Shown here piece after piece: positions 980 to 10,160 of a stretch of 64,000 nt of DNA. Position 1 is the stretch's first letter. Every line of letters starts with the position of its first letter. Source of the stretch: Verrucomicrobiia bacterium (GTDB lineage Bacteria > Verrucomicrobiota > Verrucomicrobiia > CAIQCK01); contig JBAYFL010000008.1 in assembly GCA_041667205.1 (NCBI GenBank), positions 1 to 64,000 on the forward strand, read 5' to 3'. The notes under the pieces are model-generated. The model was not told where the DNA came from, ran no database searches, and worked only from the letters and a program-made list of their open reading frames with translations. The translations under genes were made by a program, and so were the position numbers.

Positions 980-2149
980 TCACGCCAGGCATAACGCCAG
1001 TTCGCGCAGCAGTTCGCGCGAACCGCAAGTCTGAACGCGTTCAATGGCGCGCTTCTCGCGCCGATCCACTTCTTGAAAGCTGATACCGATGAGCCGCGCG
1101 GTTTCTTCGAGTGAATGCGCCACGCCGGCGGCATTGAGGCCGTAACGGAGCACGATCACCTGCCGTTGCTTATCCGTCAGGCACTCAAAAAGCCGCTCCA
1201 GCATCGGCCGGATTTCGCGCTGCGCCAGCGTCTCCGCCGGATGCACAGATCGTTCGTCGCGCGCATCACCGCCGTCCGCCCACGCCGTTTCCAGTGACAC
1301 GCGCTGCGGCATCACTTCCAGCCGGCGCAACCGCGGCAGCGCGTTCACGGGCACATGCACCGGCGCACGCTGGCCTTGCAGGAAGCGGAGCATCGCGCCG
1401 CGAATCCACTCCTGCGCGCATGTCGAGAGCCGGCAGCCGGTGGTGTTGGCGGTCTTGTCAATGGCGTGGAGCAGCGCCATGCAGCCTTCCTGAAACGCGT
1501 CGTGAAACTGGTCCGGCCCCGACGCCATCCGGCCCGCGAGGTCATAGACCAGCCGCACCTGCGCGAAAAACAAATCGGTCTGCGCCGCCTTGTAGCGCGG
1601 ATAGTCGCGCTTGATATGCAACTTGAGCTTGTCGCAGAGCGACACCAACTCGTTCGGCAGCAGCCAGCGCCGGCGCGCGGCGGGGATGTCGTCCTCCGCG
1701 CCGAGTTGGAACAGGATGTGCCGCGCCTGCCGGGCGGTGATGTTGCCGGTGAAACTCTCCAGCACGCCGAGGAGCACGTCCTTCTGCGGTTCCACCAGCA
1801 ACGACTGGATCGCCTGCTCCGCGCTCACGCCCTGACGGCCGCCGCGCAGGTCGCGCAACTGCATTTCGATCAGAACGCTCTGGCGAAACTGCGGCCAGCT
1901 CAGCAACTCGGCGAGGAACCGGCGGTAATGCGCCACCGTTTGCCGCAGGCGCTGCTCGCGGCCGGCGTCGAGCGTCTCCACGGACGCGCCGCTCTCGCGA
2001 ACGTAGCGGATCAGCCGCTCATAACCGTCTGCGCAGCCTGACGCGCCGGTTTCCGGCTGGAGCGCGCCGGTTTCTGGAAGTTCTTGCTTGGTGGTCGCCG
2101 CAATCATACGAAACTGACAAACATTACCCCCAGTGGGCGTTTGTGGCAA
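980..2149 (-). CDS. sigma-70 family RNA polymerase sigma factor (non-ECF, group 2/3-like)
   Basis: 389 aa with recognisable region 2 (DLFFAQVRLVYDLAGRM...FQEGCMALLHAIDK), region 3, and a region 4 HTH (LEETARLIGISFQEVDRREKRAIERV). It is too short to be the primary sigma factor. Confidence 0.7.
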   Translation of the reverse strand: MPQTPTGGNVCQFRMIAATTKQELPETGALQPETGASGCADGYERLIRYVRESGASVETLDAGREQRLRQTVAHYRRFLAELLSWPQFRQSVLIEMQLRDLRGGRQGVSAEQAIQSLLVEPQKDVLLGVLESFTGNITARQARHILFQLGAEDDIPAARRRWLLPNELVSLCDKLKLHIKRDYPRYKAAQTDLFFAQVRLVYDLAGRMASGPDQFHDAFQEGCMALLHAIDKTANTTGCRLSTCAQEWIRGAMLRFLQGQRAPVHVPVNALPRLRRLEVMPQRVSLETAWADGGDARDERSVHPAETLAQREIRPMLERLFECLTDKQRQVIVLRYGLNAAGVAHSLEETARLIGISFQEVDRREKRAIERVQTCGSRELLRELALCLA

Positions 2150-2209
2150 TTTCTTAGTGGCGCCGGACCGCTTTACAGCACGGCGGTCTTGCGTCAGAAT
2201 TCAGTTGTC

Positions 2210-3322
2210 ATGCGGAAGCGAAGTCCATATCGGAGGCGTTGCGGTCGGTGGCTGCGGCTGGCCGGATGGCTGGTCGCAATGGCGTTGCCCTTTGTCCATG
2301 CGGAGCCGCCACCCCTCAAGTTTTCGGACTTCATCACCTCCGCGCAACGGACAGATTCTGCGCCGCGCCTCAAGCCGCTCGACAATCTGGACGTAAACTA
2401 CACCAAAAGCGTGCCCACGCCCGGCCCGGAGGCGATTGCCCGTGGCCAGCGCGATGCCGGCGAAGATGTCTTCAGCGCCATCTATGAACGCCCGCTGGCG
2501 CGCGACCTGGCGTTGCAGGTGGACGGCTCGCTGCGGTTTCCGCAGGAACGCCCGCTCACTGAAACCGGCGTCGCCCAAGGCAATCTGGCGGTGAACAACC
2601 TCACCACGCGCGCGGTTTACGCTGGGACGGACGACTGGTCGCTGAAACCGTTTTACTCGCACACGATGTGGAACCATCAGGAGCGCGCGCAGGCGACGGC
2701 GATGGACCGCGCCGCGAGCAGCCTCGGCATGGACGCCGACTGGCAACTGACCAGCCGCACCAAGCTCACCAGCGGATTGCAGAGCCAGCAGGTGGACTAC
2801 ACAACGTCCGCGTCCAGTTACCGCGCTGACATCGCGTCGTTCGGCGTCGAACAGCAACTGACCGGCAAGCTCAAAGCCGCCGCGAGCGTCGGCACCGAGT
2901 TGCGCGAAGAGTTTACCGGCAAGCGCGCGACCAATCCCAATAACGACCTGAACCTGAGCTACGCACTGCCATACGATGCGACGTTGACCGTCGGCCGCCG
3001 GCAGGCGATTCAGGAAAGCTACCAGCCGGACTTCTACGAGGAGATGAACGAGGCCTACTATTCGCGGCTGAGCCAGCGCGTCCTGCCAAACCTCCAAGTG
3101 GACACCTCCGCCGCGCTGGAATTCGCCGGGCGAAACAGCGCGCTCGCCTCCGCCCTACCCACACGCAATGAGTTCTGGCAGTTTCAGCTCGCGCCGAGCT
3201 ATCAACTGCGCGAGGATTTGAGCGCGCAGATCGGCTACAGCCTGAAGGTTTACACCCTGCCCGCTGTGCCGAACCAGCCGCTCGACAACGCCGTGTTCCT
3301 GAGTTTGAAGCTCACTTACTAA
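2210..3322 (+). CDS. hypothetical secreted/outer-membrane protein
   Basis: Internal ATG at 2210 gives MRKRSPYRRRCGRWLRLAGWLVAMALPFVHA, a signal peptide. The protein ends in an aromatic-terminated beta-strand-like tail (AVFLSLKLTY). No family recognised. The gene is divergent from the sigma gene. Confidence 0.45.
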   Translation: MRKRSPYRRRCGRWLRLAGWLVAMALPFVHAEPPPLKFSDFITSAQRTDSAPRLKPLDNLDVNYTKSVPTPGPEAIARGQRDAGEDVFSAIYERPLARDLALQVDGSLRFPQERPLTETGVAQGNLAVNNLTTRAVYAGTDDWSLKPFYSHTMWNHQERAQATAMDRAASSLGMDADWQLTSRTKLTSGLQSQQVDYTTSASSYRADIASFGVEQQLTGKLKAAASVGTELREEFTGKRATNPNNDLNLSYALPYDATLTVGRRQAIQESYQPDFYEEMNEAYYSRLSQRVLPNLQVDTSAALEFAGRNSALASALPTRNEFWQFQLAPSYQLREDLSAQIGYSLKVYTLPAVPNQPLDNAVFLSLKLTY

Positions 3323-3771: not shown

Positions 3772-4614
3772 CTAGAAGTTGCGGCGCGGTCTGTTCCTGA
3801 ATGGGGAAATCACCGGCGGACGTTTCGGCGCGGGAGCGTGGGGAGGCTTTTCTTCCACCAACCGGACTTTCGGCGGCGATTCGAGAGTGAGCACCTCGAC
3901 GACCTTGGCGTCCTTCACCGACCAACCCGTGACCGGCTCCGCTTCGCCAATCTTCGTTTCGGACGGCTTCTTCTCTCCGGCATCAGGCTCTGGCGATGCG
4001 AAGGCGGTCTGCATCGTCGAGTTCTGCACGTTGATGGCTTCGGCGAACTGCGCAGCGGCCGCGTCGAGCACCTGGTAGCCGTTCACCAGCCACTCCAGTC
4101 GGCCCGATTGAATGTCCACCAGCAATCCATGCACCGGAGTCTTCGGCCCAATGATCGGGCTGTGGCGGACGAAATCCACGGCCTTCATCACGTTCTGGCG
4201 CTCGCTGGCGAAGACGCCGAAGAACTCGACGAGATTGTCCGGCAACTTTGACCGGTTCACGCCGAGAGCGTTGAAGCGTTCGGTGAGTTGGAGCACGGTG
4301 GTCTGTCCGGCGCGGCAATCGGTGTGGCCGATGACGGCGATTTCCTTCCCGCCTTTCACCACGCAAGCCAGCGCCAACGAACGGATCGTGCTGCTCATCG
4401 AGCCGGTGATGATGTTGCCCGCGTTGCGCAGCCAGATGAACTGTTCTTCCGGCAGGCCGAGCACCTCCGGCATCAGCGGGTTCAGCCGCGGGTCAATGCA
4501 CGTCAGTGCCACCACCGGCAGCGCTTCTGCGAAGTCCGCCACATGCACACCGGCGCGCTTATCGCCGGCCGCGGCGCGGTGGTTGGCATCCAGGATGGTT
4601 TCGAAGAGACGCAT
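3772..4614 (-). CDS. beta-class carbonic anhydrase with Pro/Lys-rich C-terminal extension
   Basis: Zinc ligand motifs CIDPRL and GHTDCRAG lie in the first 110 aa. Roughly 80 aa of low-complexity tail follows (PPKVRLVEEKPPHAPAPKRPP). Confidence 0.8.
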   Translation of the reverse strand: MRLFETILDANHRAAAGDKRAGVHVADFAEALPVVALTCIDPRLNPLMPEVLGLPEEQFIWLRNAGNIITGSMSSTIRSLALACVVKGGKEIAVIGHTDCRAGQTTVLQLTERFNALGVNRSKLPDNLVEFFGVFASERQNVMKAVDFVRHSPIIGPKTPVHGLLVDIQSGRLEWLVNGYQVLDAAAAQFAEAINVQNSTMQTAFASPEPDAGEKKPSETKIGEAEPVTGWSVKDAKVVEVLTLESPPKVRLVEEKPPHAPAPKRPPVISPFRNRPRRNF

Positions 4615-4640
4615 GGCGTCGGCGCGTTCTCAGCGACGGC

Positions 4641-6170
4641 TCAACTCGCTTTCTTATCGCTCTCGTCCTTCTCCATCGCTTTCCTCAGCGCCGGCACCTG
4701 CTCCAGCAGTTTCTCGAACTTGACGCCGGTGAGGCTCTCGATCACGGGCGGCAATTGGCTGATGATGGTGGTCACGTCGCTGGTGAGTTTGCTCGCGCCA
4801 CCGCCGGGGCCGTTGCCGGCGTTGATGATGACCATCTTCTCGGTCTTGGCCAGCGGCTCGCTGATCTTGCCGGCCACGGCCGGGAGGATTTCGACGATCA
4901 TCTGGATGACGGCGGCTTCGTTGTATTGCTTGAACGACTCCGCCTTGAAGCGCATCGCCTCGGCGGTCGCCTTGCCTTGCGCTTCGATGACGTCGGCTTG
5001 GGCCAAGCCGCGCGCCTTGTTCGCGTCGGCCTCGGCGATACCGGTGGCCTTGACGACGTCGGCGCTGGCGAAACCGGTCGCCTTCGTGGCGGACGCGGCG
5101 CCGGCGGCTTCGGTTTCGAGCTGGAATTTCCGCGCATTGGCGAGCGTCTCGACTTTGTAGCGCTCAGCGTCGGCGGGCTTCTGCACCACCGCTTCGAGTT
5201 CCTTCTGCTTGCGCTGGATTTCCTGCTGCTGTAGCTCGATCTGCTTCTGTTTCTCGATGATGCTGACCTGCACTTCCTCGGCCTTCACCAACTGGCCGGT
5301 CTTGAACTTCTGCAAATCGTAGGCGAGGTCGGCCTCGGCTTTCTTCTGGTTCACCGCGGCTTGATACATGGCGACGTTGGATTGATAGTCGCGCTGCGCC
5401 TCGGCGATCTTGGTGTCGGCGGCAAACTTCGCCTCCTGGCCGGCCTGCTGGGCTTGCGCGGAACGGATCATCGAGTCCCGGTCGGCTTCGGCCTGCGCGA
5501 TGATGGCGTCGCGTTTGACCTGCGCGATGCGCGGCTTGCCGAGTGCGTCGAGGTAGCCCTGCGTGTCTCGAATGTCGCGGATGGTGAAGCTGACGATGCC
5601 GAGGCCCATGTTGGCCATGTCGCCGGCGGCCACCTCCTGCACCTTCGAGGCAAACGCGTCGCGGTTCTGGTAGATTTCCTCCACCGTCATCGTGCCGAGA
5701 ATGGCGCGCAAGTGACCCTCTAGCGTCTGCATCGCGATGTTCTTGATGTCCTCGGTGCGTTTGCTCAGGAACTGCTCCGCGGCGGTGGCGATGGAGACGT
5801 CGTCGCCCTTGACCTTGATCTGCGCCACGCCGTCCACCTTCACCGGCACGCCCTTGCTCGTGTAAACCTCCGGCGTCTGCACATCTATGGTGAGCAACTC
5901 CAGCGAGAGCACGTCGGCTTTCTCAATGACCGGGATGATGAACGTGCCGCCGCCCTTGACGATGCGGAAGCCGCGCGAACTGATTTTGCCATCCGGGTCC
6001 GTCACGCGATACTTGCGGCCGGAGATGATCATCACCTCATTCGGGCCGACCTTCGTGTAGCGGCTGGCCCAGACGGTGCCGAAGACAAAGATGACGATGA
6101 CAAGCCCGACGATGGCGACGGCGGCAAACCCCGCGCCTTCCGGCAGCATGGCGGCAAGTGTTGGTATCAT
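4641..6170 (-). CDS. flotillin / SPFH (band-7) family protein (YqiK/FloT-like)
   Basis: 509 aa: N-terminal TM segment, SPFH domain, then a long coiled-coil region with EA/AEA-rich repeats (KAEADLAYDLQK..., ETEAAGAASATKATG...). Confidence 0.88.
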   Translation of the reverse strand: MIPTLAAMLPEGAGFAAVAIVGLVIVIFVFGTVWASRYTKVGPNEVMIISGRKYRVTDPDGKISSRGFRIVKGGGTFIIPVIEKADVLSLELLTIDVQTPEVYTSKGVPVKVDGVAQIKVKGDDVSIATAAEQFLSKRTEDIKNIAMQTLEGHLRAILGTMTVEEIYQNRDAFASKVQEVAAGDMANMGLGIVSFTIRDIRDTQGYLDALGKPRIAQVKRDAIIAQAEADRDSMIRSAQAQQAGQEAKFAADTKIAEAQRDYQSNVAMYQAAVNQKKAEADLAYDLQKFKTGQLVKAEEVQVSIIEKQKQIELQQQEIQRKQKELEAVVQKPADAERYKVETLANARKFQLETEAAGAASATKATGFASADVVKATGIAEADANKARGLAQADVIEAQGKATAEAMRFKAESFKQYNEAAVIQMIVEILPAVAGKISEPLAKTEKMVIINAGNGPGGGASKLTSDVTTIISQLPPVIESLTGVKFEKLLEQVPALRKAMEKDESDKKAS

Positions 6171-6812: not shown

Positions 6813-7216
6813 AGTAACCTCGTTGGCGTGGTTCCGGGCGTAGTTAATGCCTCTCCCTCCCATCAAGCAAGCCCGAAAGCGCCGCCCGCCCTCCCGCACT
6901 CGTTCCGCGCGGCGCAGCGCCCACACACCGCCGCGACTTTTCTGTTGTGCCGCAATCGCCCCGCGCTACACTGCCGCCGAAGCAATCGAAGGAATTATCA
7001 TGGCCGTGCTGATGTCACAACGAGGCTTTAGTGGTTGGTGCAAGCGAATCTCTCCCCGCGTGACACTTTCGACAATTTCTCAACCCCTTTTGCTGCTCAT
7101 CCGCAGCAGTATGGATCACATCCTCGAAACCATTCGAAAGAACCACGCCCACAGTGCCGCGCAGGCAAAGAAGATGTGCTTAATAGCGACCTAGTCAGCG
7201 CACAATCGGAGATAAT

Positions 7217-7912
7217 ATGTCACTCGTCTTAATCATCGTCATCCCCCTCCTCGCAGGGGCATCCTTGTTCGCATTTGCGGTTAGCTGCCGCCAGAAGCGG
7301 GATGCCAGGACTCAAGCCATCAGTCTTGTTGCAAACATCGCGACTATTGTCGGAGTAAGTTTCGCCGTCCTTGCTGTTGTTTACGGTGCCCTTCAGTATG
7401 AGACTTACTTGCGTGAGTTGTCCAAGAAACCGGACATGGAGGTATGCATCTCTCCACGTGTAATTCCTAAGTCTGGATTGATTCGGTATTCCTCACCTTC
7501 TGCACAGTATACAGAGCCAATGAAGATTATCGTAGAAGTCACCAACATCGGGCAAGTCTCAGGTCGAGAAGTGTTGGCCGTGGTGGGCTTCACCCCCAAC
7601 GTGCAAGTTCTAAGCATCGACTACCGCGGTCCTGGTTTTGAAATGCCCACGCAAGGGAAAGCCGTTTTCATGTTATTCAATCACGACGTTCCAATTCTAC
7701 CCGGCGGACCAAGCATGCCTCTCATGGAATTAACGATTAGACTCCAGAGAATGGGACAGGAACGAATTGAGATCGCCCAACTGATGACAAATGTGGAAGG
7801 AAAGCGCTTCAAAATCTATCAGGTATTCCTTGACCCAATCTCAAATAGGTTCAACAACGAAGTTTGCCAATCTGGGCATAAGACCTCCGTGGGGAATTTC
7901 CCATTAGAATGA
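7217..7912 (+). CDS. hypothetical membrane protein encoded on a low-GC islet
   Basis: 231 aa with a GGAGA ribosome-binding site 7 nt upstream. Two N-terminal TM helices, then a soluble domain. The local GC (about 48%) is far below the roughly 65% of the flanks. Confidence 0.55.
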   Translation: MSLVLIIVIPLLAGASLFAFAVSCRQKRDARTQAISLVANIATIVGVSFAVLAVVYGALQYETYLRELSKKPDMEVCISPRVIPKSGLIRYSSPSAQYTEPMKIIVEVTNIGQVSGREVLAVVGFTPNVQVLSIDYRGPGFEMPTQGKAVFMLFNHDVPILPGGPSMPLMELTIRLQRMGQERIEIAQLMTNVEGKRFKIYQVFLDPISNRFNNEVCQSGHKTSVGNFPLE

Positions 7913-8127
7913 CTGAAATTGTTGGGCCATTCGACAGATGAGGCGGCGACGTAGGTTTCCAAAAGTAGTTTTGGGTTCTTAGTATCCGGTCGTCGGATTC
8001 AATTCATGATTCTTAACGAGTTTCAGACCGGTGGCGGCTATCGAAAGCACGTCAGCAATAAGTTTCGTCTGAGGCGCGGGGACGGGAGGCGTGAGGTTTT
8101 GACCTGAGGGTCAATCCAGTCTTGACC

Positions 8128-8448
8128 TCACTTCACGTCAAGCCGGTCCAGCCGCAGGAGAACGGCGCCGAAGTCGAGGACGCGCTGGCCGGGGACGAGG
8201 AAGCAGGCGGGGATGCTGTAGCAGTTGCCATAGCCGCGCCGGAGCATGCCCAACTCCAGCAGGACGGCGCAGTGTTTGCCGATGTTGGTGGCCGGAACAT
8301 GGAGGCGGTTGGAGAGTTCGAGCACCGGCAGGGCCTCGCCTTTGAGGAGTTCGTCGAGGATTCGCCACCGCGTCATGTCCGAAACGGCTGTCAGGAGGCG
8401 TCCCAATGGGATGACGGGTATTTGTCCGGTCGTGGCGGTCGTATTCAT
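8128..8448 (-). CDS. ArsR/winged-helix family transcriptional regulator (putative)
   Basis: 106 aa with a wHTH-like stretch MTRWRILDELLKGEALPVLELSNRLHVPATNIGKHCAVLLELGML. Confidence 0.5.
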   Translation of the reverse strand: MNTTATTGQIPVIPLGRLLTAVSDMTRWRILDELLKGEALPVLELSNRLHVPATNIGKHCAVLLELGMLRRGYGNCYSIPACFLVPGQRVLDFGAVLLRLDRLDVK

Positions 8449-8479
8449 GGCTTTTTCCCTATTTTCCGCAGGATTACAA

Positions 8480-8757
8480 CATATTCCGACGACCTTGGCA
8501 AGCGTTCTACGGGATGGTTGGTTCTTTCGAACAGGTGCGATATTCTTCCTGCCGGGTGGAAAGTTCTTTCTACAGGGTGAGATATTCGTCTTCCAAGATG
8601 GGATATTCTTTCGGACAGGTGTGATATTCCGTCAAACAGGTGGAAGATTCTTTCTATCAGATGTGATATTCTCGCGAACGGGTGTGATGTTCTTTCGGGC
8701 AGGTGGTATATTCCTCCTCACAGATGGGAGAATCTTCCGGACAGGCGGGATATTGTC
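8480..8757. repeat. about 13 tandem copies of a degenerate 19-24 bp direct repeat (period about 21 bp, consensus TATTCTTTCnnACAGGTGnGA)
   Basis: Read directly: ...TATTCTTTCGGACAGGTGTGA TATTCCGTCAAACAGGTGGAAGA TTCTTTCTATCAGATGTGA TATTCTCGCGAACGGGTGTGA... The array is AT-rich and intergenic, between the ArsR-like gene start and the peptidase gene end. Confidence 0.85.
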
Positions 8758-8885
8758 AGTTGGAAGCGTGCCGATTCAACGGCGGAGGTTGAATTCAGTG
8801 ATCGAGGCTGAATCGAAGTCCGTCGCGATTCGCCGCTATGGCCGGACGAACGCCAAGGTTCCCCAGACTTCCCCGCTCTGCCGCG

Positions 8886-10160
8886 CTACAACTGTTTTAG
8901 TTCCCGCTCGATGCCCTTCGCGTCCTTCGTCGGGCCGATCACGGCCAAGCGCAGGCGCGACGCGCGAAACAGATCGCGGGCGATGGCGTGGACTTCCGAC
9001 GCCGTGACTTGTTGGACGCGGTTCACCACCTCGTCCGGTTCAAATATCTTCCGGAAGCCGAGCAGGTGTTCGCCGGCCCACATCATTTGGTTGCTCGTGC
9101 TCTCCAGAGCGAGCCGCATCTGGCCGATGGCGTAGTCCTTGGCGCGACGCACCTCGCCGATTGACGGCGGCTTGGCGGCGGCGCGGGCCAGTTCGCGCAC
9201 TGTCAGCCGCAGCGCCTTTGTAAGCCGCTTGTTGTCGAGGCCGGCTGAGACGATCATCGCGCCGGCGTCGGCGAAGTAGTTGAGCGAACTCTGGATGGAA
9301 TACGCCAGGCCGTGCCGCTCGCGCACCACCTGGAACAGCCGGCTGCTCATGTTCTCGCCGAAGATCACGTTGAGCAGCTTCAGCGCATAGCGCCGGTCGT
9401 CGGAACGGGAGAAGCTGTGCAGGCCGAGCGCCAGGTGGCTCTGCTCGGTCTCCTTGGTCATCAGCCGCACGACGGGGCCGCGTCCGCCCATGCGCGCGGA
9501 CAGGAACCGGTTGCTCCGGCCTTGGCGGATGCGCTTCGCCAACGGCCGCACCGCCTCCAGCAAGCGCGCGTGCTCCAGCGGGCCAGCGGCGGCAATGATC
9601 GTGTTGTTGCCGACGTAGTGCCGCGCCTTGTAGTCGAGCAGGTCGCGGCGCGAGATGGCGTCCATGGTCTTGAGCGTGCCGGTCAGCGACTTGCCCAACG
9701 GCTGGCGCGGCCAGAGCGTCTCGTTCAGAATCTCGTGCACGTGCTGGTCCGGCCGGTCCAGATACATCTGGATTTCTTCCTTGATGACACCGCGTTCCTT
9801 CTCCAGTTCGGCCGCGTCGAACCGCGGCTCCAGATAGATGTCCATCAATACGTCGAGGAGCAGGTCGAGTTTGTCGGCGCTGGCCTTGGCGAAGTAGCAG
9901 GTGTGTTCCTCGCTGGTGAAGGCGTTGAGGTAGCCGCCGATGCCCTCGACCTCCTGGCTGATCTGCTTCGCGCTGCGGCGGCGCGTGCCTTTGAAGAGCA
10001 TGTGCTCGATGAAATGGCTGACGCCGCAAATCCGCGCCGGTTCGTGCCGGCCGCCGACGGCAACCCAGACGCCGAGCGCAACGCTTTGCATCGAGGGCAT
10101 CTCGGCGGTGGCGACCAACAGGGAGTTGTCGAGGCGCGTGACGTGGTAGCGGGCGATCAT
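8886..10160 (-). CDS. M16 family zinc metallopeptidase (insulinase/pitrilysin-like)
   Basis: Inverted zincin motif HFIEHMLFKGT near the N-terminus. Start placed at the internal ATG at 10160 (MIARYHVTRL...). Both halves of the M16 fold are present. Confidence 0.82.
   Translation of the reverse strand: MIARYHVTRLDNSLLVATAEMPSMQSVALGVWVAVGGRHEPARICGVSHFIEHMLFKGTRRRSAKQISQEVEGIGGYLNAFTSEEHTCYFAKASADKLDLLLDVLMDIYLEPRFDAAELEKERGVIKEEIQMYLDRPDQHVHEILNETLWPRQPLGKSLTGTLKTMDAISRRDLLDYKARHYVGNNTIIAAAGPLEHARLLEAVRPLAKRIRQGRSNRFLSARMGGRGPVVRLMTKETEQSHLALGLHSFSRSDDRRYALKLLNVIFGENMSSRLFQVVRERHGLAYSIQSSLNYFADAGAMIVSAGLDNKRLTKALRLTVRELARAAAKPPSIGEVRRAKDYAIGQMRLALESTSNQMMWAGEHLLGFRKIFEPDEVVNRVQQVTASEVHAIARDLFRASRLRLAVIGPTKDAKGIERELKQL

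Follow-up and report, generated by a model that had tools for sequence, protein, structure and literature searches.

A phased array of 21-bp direct repeats as the probable operator of a neighbouring winged-helix gene in Verrucomicrobiota

Arrays of direct repeats that are situated beside the gene of the protein binding them are known to date from plasmid partition and replication systems, and not from stand-alone chromosomal genes. In the ParR/parC and TubR/tubC systems, direct repeats are located upstream of the binder's gene, and a cooperative filament or ring covers and represses the promoter (PMC6009700). The tubC site of pBtoxis is composed of seven 12-bp repeats in two sets, while the small helix-turn-helix protein StbA autoregulates and binds ten direct repeats that are phased on one face of the DNA in its own promoter, the stbS repeats being 9 bp in length with an 11-bp period and arranged as two sets of five (bioRxiv 10.1101/2022.04.29.490116). 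Iterons are found near the gene of a replication initiator, which autoregulates, and these repeats furthermore serve titration and handcuffing (PMC6090056).

In the present study, a tandem array of 21-bp direct repeats from a Verrucomicrobiia genome was compared with these systems. The window, i.e. the whole stretch of 64,000 nucleotides that was analysed, harbours this array in the 437-bp spacer between the stop codon of an M16 peptidase gene and the start codon of a gene encoding a small winged-helix protein, referred to here as the regulator. The features of this part of the window are as follows:

8128-8448, minus strand: gene (regulator) of a 106-aa winged helix-turn-helix protein that has an ArsR/SmtB-like fold and presumably binds the array
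8473-8501, minus strand: candidate sigma-70-like promoter of the regulator gene, with TTGCCA at 8501-8496, a 17-nt spacer and TGTAAT at 8478-8473, the latter preceded by TG
8512-8763, minus strand: indel-free array of 12 direct repeats of 21 bp, the outermost unit of which (8743-8763) is degenerate
8774-8794: inverted repeat ATTCAAC-N7-GTTGAAT, immediately distal to the array
8886-10160, minus strand: M16 peptidase gene

An initial annotation of this DNA had assigned the two flanking genes as an ArsR-like regulator and an M16 peptidase, and both assignments were borne out, the former by a match to HTH_20 and an ArsR-like fold. Based on the sequence comparisons presented below, we consider it probable (roughly 60%) that the array represents a cooperative, iteron-like operator that is bound by the adjacent winged-helix protein and that regulates this protein's own gene; binding of the array by the adjacent protein is, as a claim of its own, judged probable to about the same degree. 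Together with the gene, the array most likely forms a control module bound by its own product, and is less likely to be random repeat DNA or coding sequence. A search of the literature yielded no description of the regulator family or of its array.

Tandem Repeats Finder reported periods of 21, 42 and 63 over positions 8522-8754, and a repeat search of the spacer retrieved seven long copies with a start-to-start spacing of exactly 21 bp. The lag-21 self-identity of the array (0.65) was above that of all 37,804 control windows that served as the null (99.9th percentile 0.476, maximum 0.516), so that the tandem array reported previously is real. Its extent required partial revision: where about 13 copies of 21 bp had been placed at 8480-8757, the period was found to hold, the count was found to be 12 and the repeat was found to run from 8512, positions 8480-8511 being no part of the repeat and holding the candidate -35 box. 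In the frame of the initial annotation, 11 clear units are present at 8522-8752; in the frame counted from the ATG, 12 units occupy 8512-8763, and the array ends 64 nt upstream of the regulator start codon. The unit consensus on the regulator sense strand is GTyrGAAAGAATatCcCACCy (position 4 given as r or m), and its plus-strand form, TATTCTTTCnnACAGGTGnGA, agrees with the consensus given earlier. Each unit contains two conserved blocks, GAAAGAAT and CCACC (gene sense strand), approximately one helical turn apart, with a core consisting of GAA at positions 9-11 and of C, A and C at positions 17, 18 and 20. As the 21-bp unit corresponds to two helical turns, all 12 sites are located on one face of the DNA and in one orientation. 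The array was also correctly described as AT-rich (GC content of 47-48%, compared with 62% for the window) and as distinct from a CRISPR, its units being contiguous and without spacers.

Within the window, the repeat is confined to the array. All junction-motif matches in the 64 kb (9/9, with 1.9 expected by chance) fall inside it, and a weight-matrix scan of the window returned nothing above shuffled sequence outside the array; the search for further copies that had been advised in the initial annotation thus retrieved none outside the array, which is not dispersed in this stretch. A scan with the unit matrix of 5 kb on either side in 12 other loci of the regulator family likewise yielded nothing above shuffled sequence, and the array as a dispersed element or as the mark of a local regulon was rejected on these null outcomes of the pattern and matrix scans of the window and the 12 loci.

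The sole inverted repeat detected within the array is a 10-nt pair with its arms 77 nt apart. The inverted repeat at 8774-8794 is kept, with one mismatch, in the orthologous locus L041 (loci carrying homologues of the regulator are designated here by L numbers), and could mark where the M16 transcript ends, act as a nucleation site or serve as an operator of the conventional dimer type. Thirteen nucleotides of the core of the promoter-proximal unit (TTCGAAAGAACCA; compare 8519-8540) recur exactly, in inverted orientation, at 7124-7145, ~80 nt upstream of a 231-aa ORF described below; this copy scores 7.3 bits on the full unit matrix, which is within chance, and is probably not a site. The likeness of TGTGATAT to a DnaA box was dropped, as it requires a one-base deletion and as other clades do not possess such a sequence.

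At 8491-8511, a degenerate segment resembling the repeat is present, and the -35 box of the candidate promoter starts 2 nt past the GAAC core of this segment. A -35/-10-like pair together with the 21-bp register counted from the ATG is conserved in the window and in L007, L008, L009 and L041, and the promoter and leader are 84% identical to those of L041, compared with 68% for the array. The candidate promoter is missed by a simple scan for the sigma-70 consensus, because its second hexamer carries a G at position 2, and it is therefore proposed on the basis of its conservation. As the last site abuts the candidate -35 box of the gene, the regulator would be transcribed according to how fully the array is occupied. 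In L017, L021 and L022, the periodicity reaches to ~30 nt from the start codon, so that the promoter must lie inside the array at these loci.

The regulator was shown to possess a winged helix-turn-helix fold of the ArsR type. It scores above the cut-off for the Pfam family HTH_20 (30 bits vs 27) and below the cut-offs for HTH_5 (arsR; 20.6 bits vs 22) and for the curated ArsR subfamily NF033788 of NCBIfam (31 bits vs 55), while a profile of the regulator family matches ArsR/SmtB structures. The comparison with Pfam and NCBIfam returned only HTH_20/ArsR-type matches and no Rep family. PADLOC yielded only a weak match, to the HTH domain of Csa3, and membership in a defence system was rejected on this outcome. 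In an alignment of 22 sequences, no conserved Cys or His sensor ligands were present, with the exception of H59, which is part of the recognition helix. Residues N55, K58 and H59 of this helix are almost invariant across the family, and the recognition helix as a whole varies more than helix 2 or the C-terminal segment. The C-terminal ~35 residues (70-106) are predicted to form beta strands, with the highly conserved PGQRALDFGAVLLRLDRLD, replacing the usual alpha-5 helix. The regulator belongs with the ArsR/SmtB metalloregulators at the level of the fold only. It differs from them in having no conserved metal or redox ligands, in the replacement of the alpha-5 dimerisation helix by a beta segment and in its presumed target, which is an asymmetric direct-repeat array and not a single palindromic operator of the 12-2-12 type.

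Among the described array-binding systems, ParR, TubR and StbA would be the closest functional analogues, with iterons and Rep proteins as a further parallel. As in ParR/parC and TubR/tubC, the array is located upstream of, and reaches, the promoter of the binder's own gene, here abutting the candidate -35 box in an arrangement that the array-bearing loci have kept, and the regulator, like TubR, carries a helix-turn-helix DNA-binding domain. However, the ParR and TubR systems are borne by plasmids or prophages and include a ParM or TubZ motor, whereas the locus described here is chromosomal and a motor gene is absent. Their repeats are also shorter and split into blocks, compared with 8-18 contiguous copies of 21 bp in the present family, and specific sequence similarity to these systems is lacking here. 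The likeness to StbA/stbS of R388 comprises a small helix-turn-helix protein, phased direct repeats in its own promoter and the lack of a dedicated NTPase, with binding being presumed in the present case. StbA, in contrast, is encoded on a plasmid, its PadR-like fold lacks a wing, and it also recognises smaller sets of repeats at other promoters; neither the 5 kb on either side nor the 64-kb window yielded further sites here.

Classical iterons are spaced by roughly two helical turns, and Rep proteins are larger, with two winged-helix domains. The array resembles iteron arrays in that tandem repeats of ~17-22 bp are positioned at approximately two turns beside the gene of their binder, with 12 units in the present case. 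Conversely, Rep origins carry DnaA boxes and AT-rich unwinding elements, neither of which was seen here, and the locus has no Rep-family initiator and no plasmid or chromid context. The module thus cannot be assigned to the partition or Rep systems, as it lacks features that define them, i.e. a motor gene, a match to a Rep family and a plasmid setting. The features that set the module apart are its chromosomal, stand-alone setting, its occurrence in one phylum, its strictly conserved 21-bp period and the fast turnover of the array.

Homologues of the regulator were found only in metagenome-assembled genomes of Verrucomicrobiota. A search among 1.84 billion cluster representatives retrieved 206 representatives at E<=1e-10, corresponding to at least 206 clusters at 50% identity; several genomes carry two to four paralogues, and the homologues that were examined span 41-96% identity. 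No relatives of the regulator were present in IMG/VR, INPHARED, PLSDB or PHROGs (72,556 plasmids covered), and a phage or plasmid origin was rejected on this absence from viral, phage and plasmid collections, the window locus itself being situated on a 360-kb contig among housekeeping genes. The neighbourhoods of the homologues are unrelated to one another (ThiC, aminotransferases, methyltransferase, FtsK and others). In an all-against-all clustering of the neighbouring ORFs of 30 loci, only the regulator gene and its antisense shadows were found to recur, and a conserved partner such as a motor, an integrase or a toxin was rejected on this result.

The array was shown to accompany the regulator gene across much of this family. 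All of the first four homologous loci that were inspected carry a 21-bp-period array ~90-140 bp upstream of the start codon, and 21 of 30 genome loci, scored over the 470 bp upstream of the regulator gene, exceed the 99.9th percentile of the null for lag-21 periodicity. The nine remaining loci include N-terminally truncated or frameshifted copies (L013, L016 and L024) and C-terminal remnants (L028 and L035), the remainder being relatives below ~45% identity. An upstream repeat signal was seen in a subset of the metagenome loci, mostly closer homologues, and its top lags are 21, 42 or 63, while more distant or truncated loci display background lags only; the 21-bp-period array co-occurs with the family gene in most of the closer metagenome loci. 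Across loci, the arrays comprise 8-18 units over 250-380 bp and end ~50-140 nt before the start codon. The sequence of the unit differs between clades, the period is always 21, 42 or 63, a purine-rich block (GAAGAA-like) recurs in most arrays and 21 of 29 arrays are A-rich on the sense strand. Cross-clade alignment of the unit consensus sequences is unreliable beyond close clades, and no universal motif other than the purine-rich block is therefore claimed. At L028 (4167-5093), a 42-bp-period array of ~8 copies (4578-4950) was observed between a divergent, distant member of the family (4167-4511, minus strand) and a C-terminal remnant (5001-5093, plus strand), an arrangement that suggests gene replacement around a retained array.

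Constraint within the array was assessed against L041 and L042, which are syntenic orthologues located downstream of M16, encode a protein of 96% identity and possess the same number of units (12) in the same register as the window array. Identity between the window and L041 was 96% for the regulator gene, 81.5% for the third codon positions of M16, 84% for the promoter and leader and 68% for the array overall. Within the unit, positions 9-11 (GAA) and 17, 18 and 20 (C, A, C) were 91-99% identical, compared with 33-75% for the remaining positions, the non-core positions changing faster than the synonymous-site proxy (M16 third codon positions). Higher-order periods of 42, 63 and 84 in the arrays represent block duplications, and these super-periods, together with the fast change of non-core positions, point to unit turnover by unequal exchange. 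The fixed, bipartite core with its blocks about one turn apart is the signature of a protein-binding array and not of neutral slippage. Three further assemblies of the species carry an identical intergenic sequence, and copy-number polymorphism was rejected, none being present among the four assemblies and one orthologue. The third codon positions of the regulator gene itself were observed to be 93.5% identical (window 8128-8448 compared with L041 1501-1821; a small sample of 107 codons), the corresponding value for M16 being 81.5%; the high value for the regulator could reflect unusually strong constraint or recent gene exchange.

Protein and array were furthermore shown to vary in a paired manner. 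The unit core AGCAAGAnAGCCGC is common to six genomes in which the recognition helix and the wing are identical or nearly so (VPATNISKHCVVLHRCGILKRDYG-LYKI, with T for N55 in L045). L021 and L022 have a common helix and a common core, and the same is true of the window and L041. The paralogues L007 and L009, which derive from one genome, differ at helix positions 53, 57, 60, 61 and 62 and in the second block of the unit. This pattern fits a conserved core contact combined with diverging specificity contacts; it is supportive and not decisive, since shared ancestry alone would give co-variation. The earlier proposal of a cooperative protein-binding array that is tied to the adjacent gene is supported, as far as sequence comparison can tell, by co-occurrence, by constraint on the core and by protein-array pairing.

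In the proposed mechanism, the adjacent protein would bind the units in a head-to-tail manner, with one protomer or dimer per unit, and would polymerise cooperatively over ~250 bp, by which transcription of the regulator gene would be coupled to occupancy of the promoter-proximal site. Repression would be the most likely outcome, judging from ParR, TubR, StbA, omega and Rep, although an array in an upstream position may instead act by activation. What we infer is which protein binds, how many molecules occupy each unit, whether the regulation is negative or positive and what the module does in the cell. Certain observations argue against this reading. The invariance of N55, K58 and H59, when set against units that are diverse between clades, implies either that a short, purine-rich core is read or that another factor binds. 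Furthermore, the units are asymmetric direct repeats, and ArsR/SmtB proteins classically bind palindromes as symmetric dimers. Finally, the placement of the array with respect to the promoter varies, as exemplified by L017, L021 and L022. If the operator reading is correct, an entire family of small, ArsR-like proteins is equipped with its own private, phased array of 8-18 sites and would offer a natural set of diverged protein-operator pairs for the study of asymmetric direct-repeat reading by winged-helix proteins and of their polymerisation on DNA, as well as an entry point to gene regulation in a phylum whose promoters and regulators are almost entirely uncharacterised.

The array could alternatively serve as a centromere-like or chromosome-organising site, where a coating complex would act in pairing, anchoring or insulation or as a roadblock, autoregulation being secondary. 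Such a role would agree with the size and uniformity of the arrays (250-380 bp, 8-18 units, one helical face), with a regulator that has no conserved sensor residues (Cys is not conserved), with the position of the module at the border of a variable gene slot (see below) and with the precedent of StbA, which binds a centromere and has no NTPase of its own (bioRxiv 10.1101/2022.04.29.490116). It is nevertheless regarded as rather unlikely: no recurrent ParA-, ParM- or TubZ-like partner is found nearby, the setting is chromosomal without plasmid or phage relatives, a chromosome has no obvious need for such sites and several paralogues are possible per genome. A role for the array that is independent of the regulator, either as curved, A-tract-phased DNA or as a set of sites for a global protein, both of which would tune the promoter, appears quite unlikely. 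Paralogues of one genome have different units, a difference for which one global factor would not account, the conserved positions include bases outside A-tracts (CCACC), and the array is present only with the regulator family and decays together with it. What speaks for such an element is the purine-rich, A-rich block at every second helical turn (the sense strand being A-rich in 21/29 arrays), the location of the array on the upstream side of the -35 box, the region in which curved DNA and UP-like elements exert their effect, and the invariant recognition-helix residues, which do not account for the diversity of the units. A neutral slippage minisatellite would be compatible with the super-periods of 42, 63 and 84 and with the fast turnover of non-core positions, but not readily with the conservation of position, period, size and core bases across genera, nor with the equal copy number in four assemblies of the species and in L041. 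A structured or sponge RNA is likewise disfavoured, as the array is located upstream of the candidate promoter, the window contains no Rfam 15 match and no tRNA, and the folding z-scores (0.46 and -1.55) are no better than those of shuffles on either strand; a known or structured RNA was rejected on the latter three results. Minisatellite and RNA are, as one class of explanation, considered very unlikely.

The layout of ~21-bp direct repeats beside a winged-helix gene is the classic layout of iterons (PMC6090056), and the segment represents an insertion relative to a close relative, both of which would suit replication-origin iterons or the remnant of an integrated plasmid with a Rep-like adjacent protein. 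This origin is, however, extremely unlikely in view of a protein of 106 aa with a single winged helix and no Rep family match, the absence of homologues from 72,556 plasmids and from phage collections, the housekeeping genes that flank the locus on its 360-kb contig, the lack of any AT-rich unwinding element or DnaA box seen at the locus and the lack of replication or partition genes recurring nearby. Of still lower and indeed almost negligible probability is a heptad-repeat protein (IFFRTGV) encoded by the plus-strand ORF at 8246-9007. This ORF is open across the entire array in the window, 21 bp corresponding to seven codons, and similar ORFs have been annotated in some assemblies (L002 and L006). 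However, the frame contains three stops in L041 and L042, two of these being inside the array, and the arrays of L007, L009, L006 and L012 are stopped in all six frames. Conservation within the unit displays no three-base periodicity, the blocks GAA and CAC being fixed, the translation has no Pfam match and the ORF overlaps the regulator and M16 genes in antisense. Based on the stops in the orthologue frames and in the four other arrays, the ORF was rejected as a conserved gene, in agreement with its earlier description as probably non-coding.

Turning to the genomic surroundings of the probable operator and its regulator gene, comparison with close relatives revealed that both are part of a segment with variable content, for which the following features were identified:

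6879-8879: 2.0-kb segment comprising two cargo ORFs in addition to the regulator gene and its array, replaced by 51 bp in L040 (5782-5832)
6926-7003, plus strand: promoter-like element of ~70 nt, with the core GACTTTGnnGTTGTGCCGCAnCCGCCnCGCGCTACACTGCCGCCGAAGCAATC followed by a Shine-Dalgarno sequence and ATG, heading the cargo genes that are convergent with the regulator gene
7000-7194, plus strand: cargo ORF of 64 aa, low GC, no family match
7217-7912, plus strand: cargo ORF of 231 aa, membrane-anchored, low GC, no family match
L007 5786-5884 and 6928-7024, L008 8634-8702, L041 3158-3222, L047 2779-2859 and L061 2207-2286, minus strand: further copies of the promoter-like element

In L040, the M16 protein of which is 90% identical, M16 and NfeD are adjacent, homology with the window breaking at 8880 and resuming at 6878, and no clear terminal repeats were detected at the borders of the 6879-8879 segment. 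A third relative carries different genes after M16, while L042 keeps M16, the array and the regulator and differs in the convergent gene, which encodes a 447-aa HEAT-repeat protein (1875-3218, minus strand). The ~70-nt element is represented by seven copies in six loci of the closest clade, all of which are beside regulator loci and head differing convergent genes; no further copy was found in the 64-kb window or in other loci. The convergent genes differ between close orthologues and specify HEAT, LRV/HEAT and no-family proteins (L007 5430-5816 and 5978-6949, minus strand; L047 1693-2781, minus strand). In L009, the convergent position is occupied by a CAP12/Pycsar-type TIR-domain gene (5398-6159, minus strand), where the ~70-nt element was not detected. 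These comparisons suggest that the convergent position is a hot spot for accessory genes, and the differing cargo around a conserved regulator and array indicates that the module is situated at one border of a variable slot.

A more speculative reading of this arrangement, to which we assign only a small chance, is that the motor-less, chromosomal nucleoprotein module marks and controls one border of an exchangeable accessory-gene cassette slot, the other border being formed by the ~70-nt element that drives the cargo convergently, and that the bound filament or convergent transcription would switch the cargo on or off. If true, this would represent a new kind of control of accessory-gene hot spots, beyond that of an autoregulated repressor. 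The operator reading, if correct, would likewise make the module a possible marker of variable accessory-gene slots.

The arrays also bear on the annotation and assembly of these genomes. Spurious ORFs were observed to have been annotated across arrays by gene callers (L002 103-600 and L006 3706-3924), and the arrays explain such intergenic ORF calls. The loci L011, L014, L018, L020, L033, L034 and L054 are located at or near contig ends or are cut within the gene, which suggests that paralogous genes and arrays break metagenome assemblies; arrays may thus contribute to the contig ends near these loci. In addition, an unrelated 21-bp repeat, CATCCGACAAACACGTCCCCG, is present in 2.4 copies at L008 4534-4584 (identical in L003 and L004, 3534-3584), ~100 bp distal to the main array.
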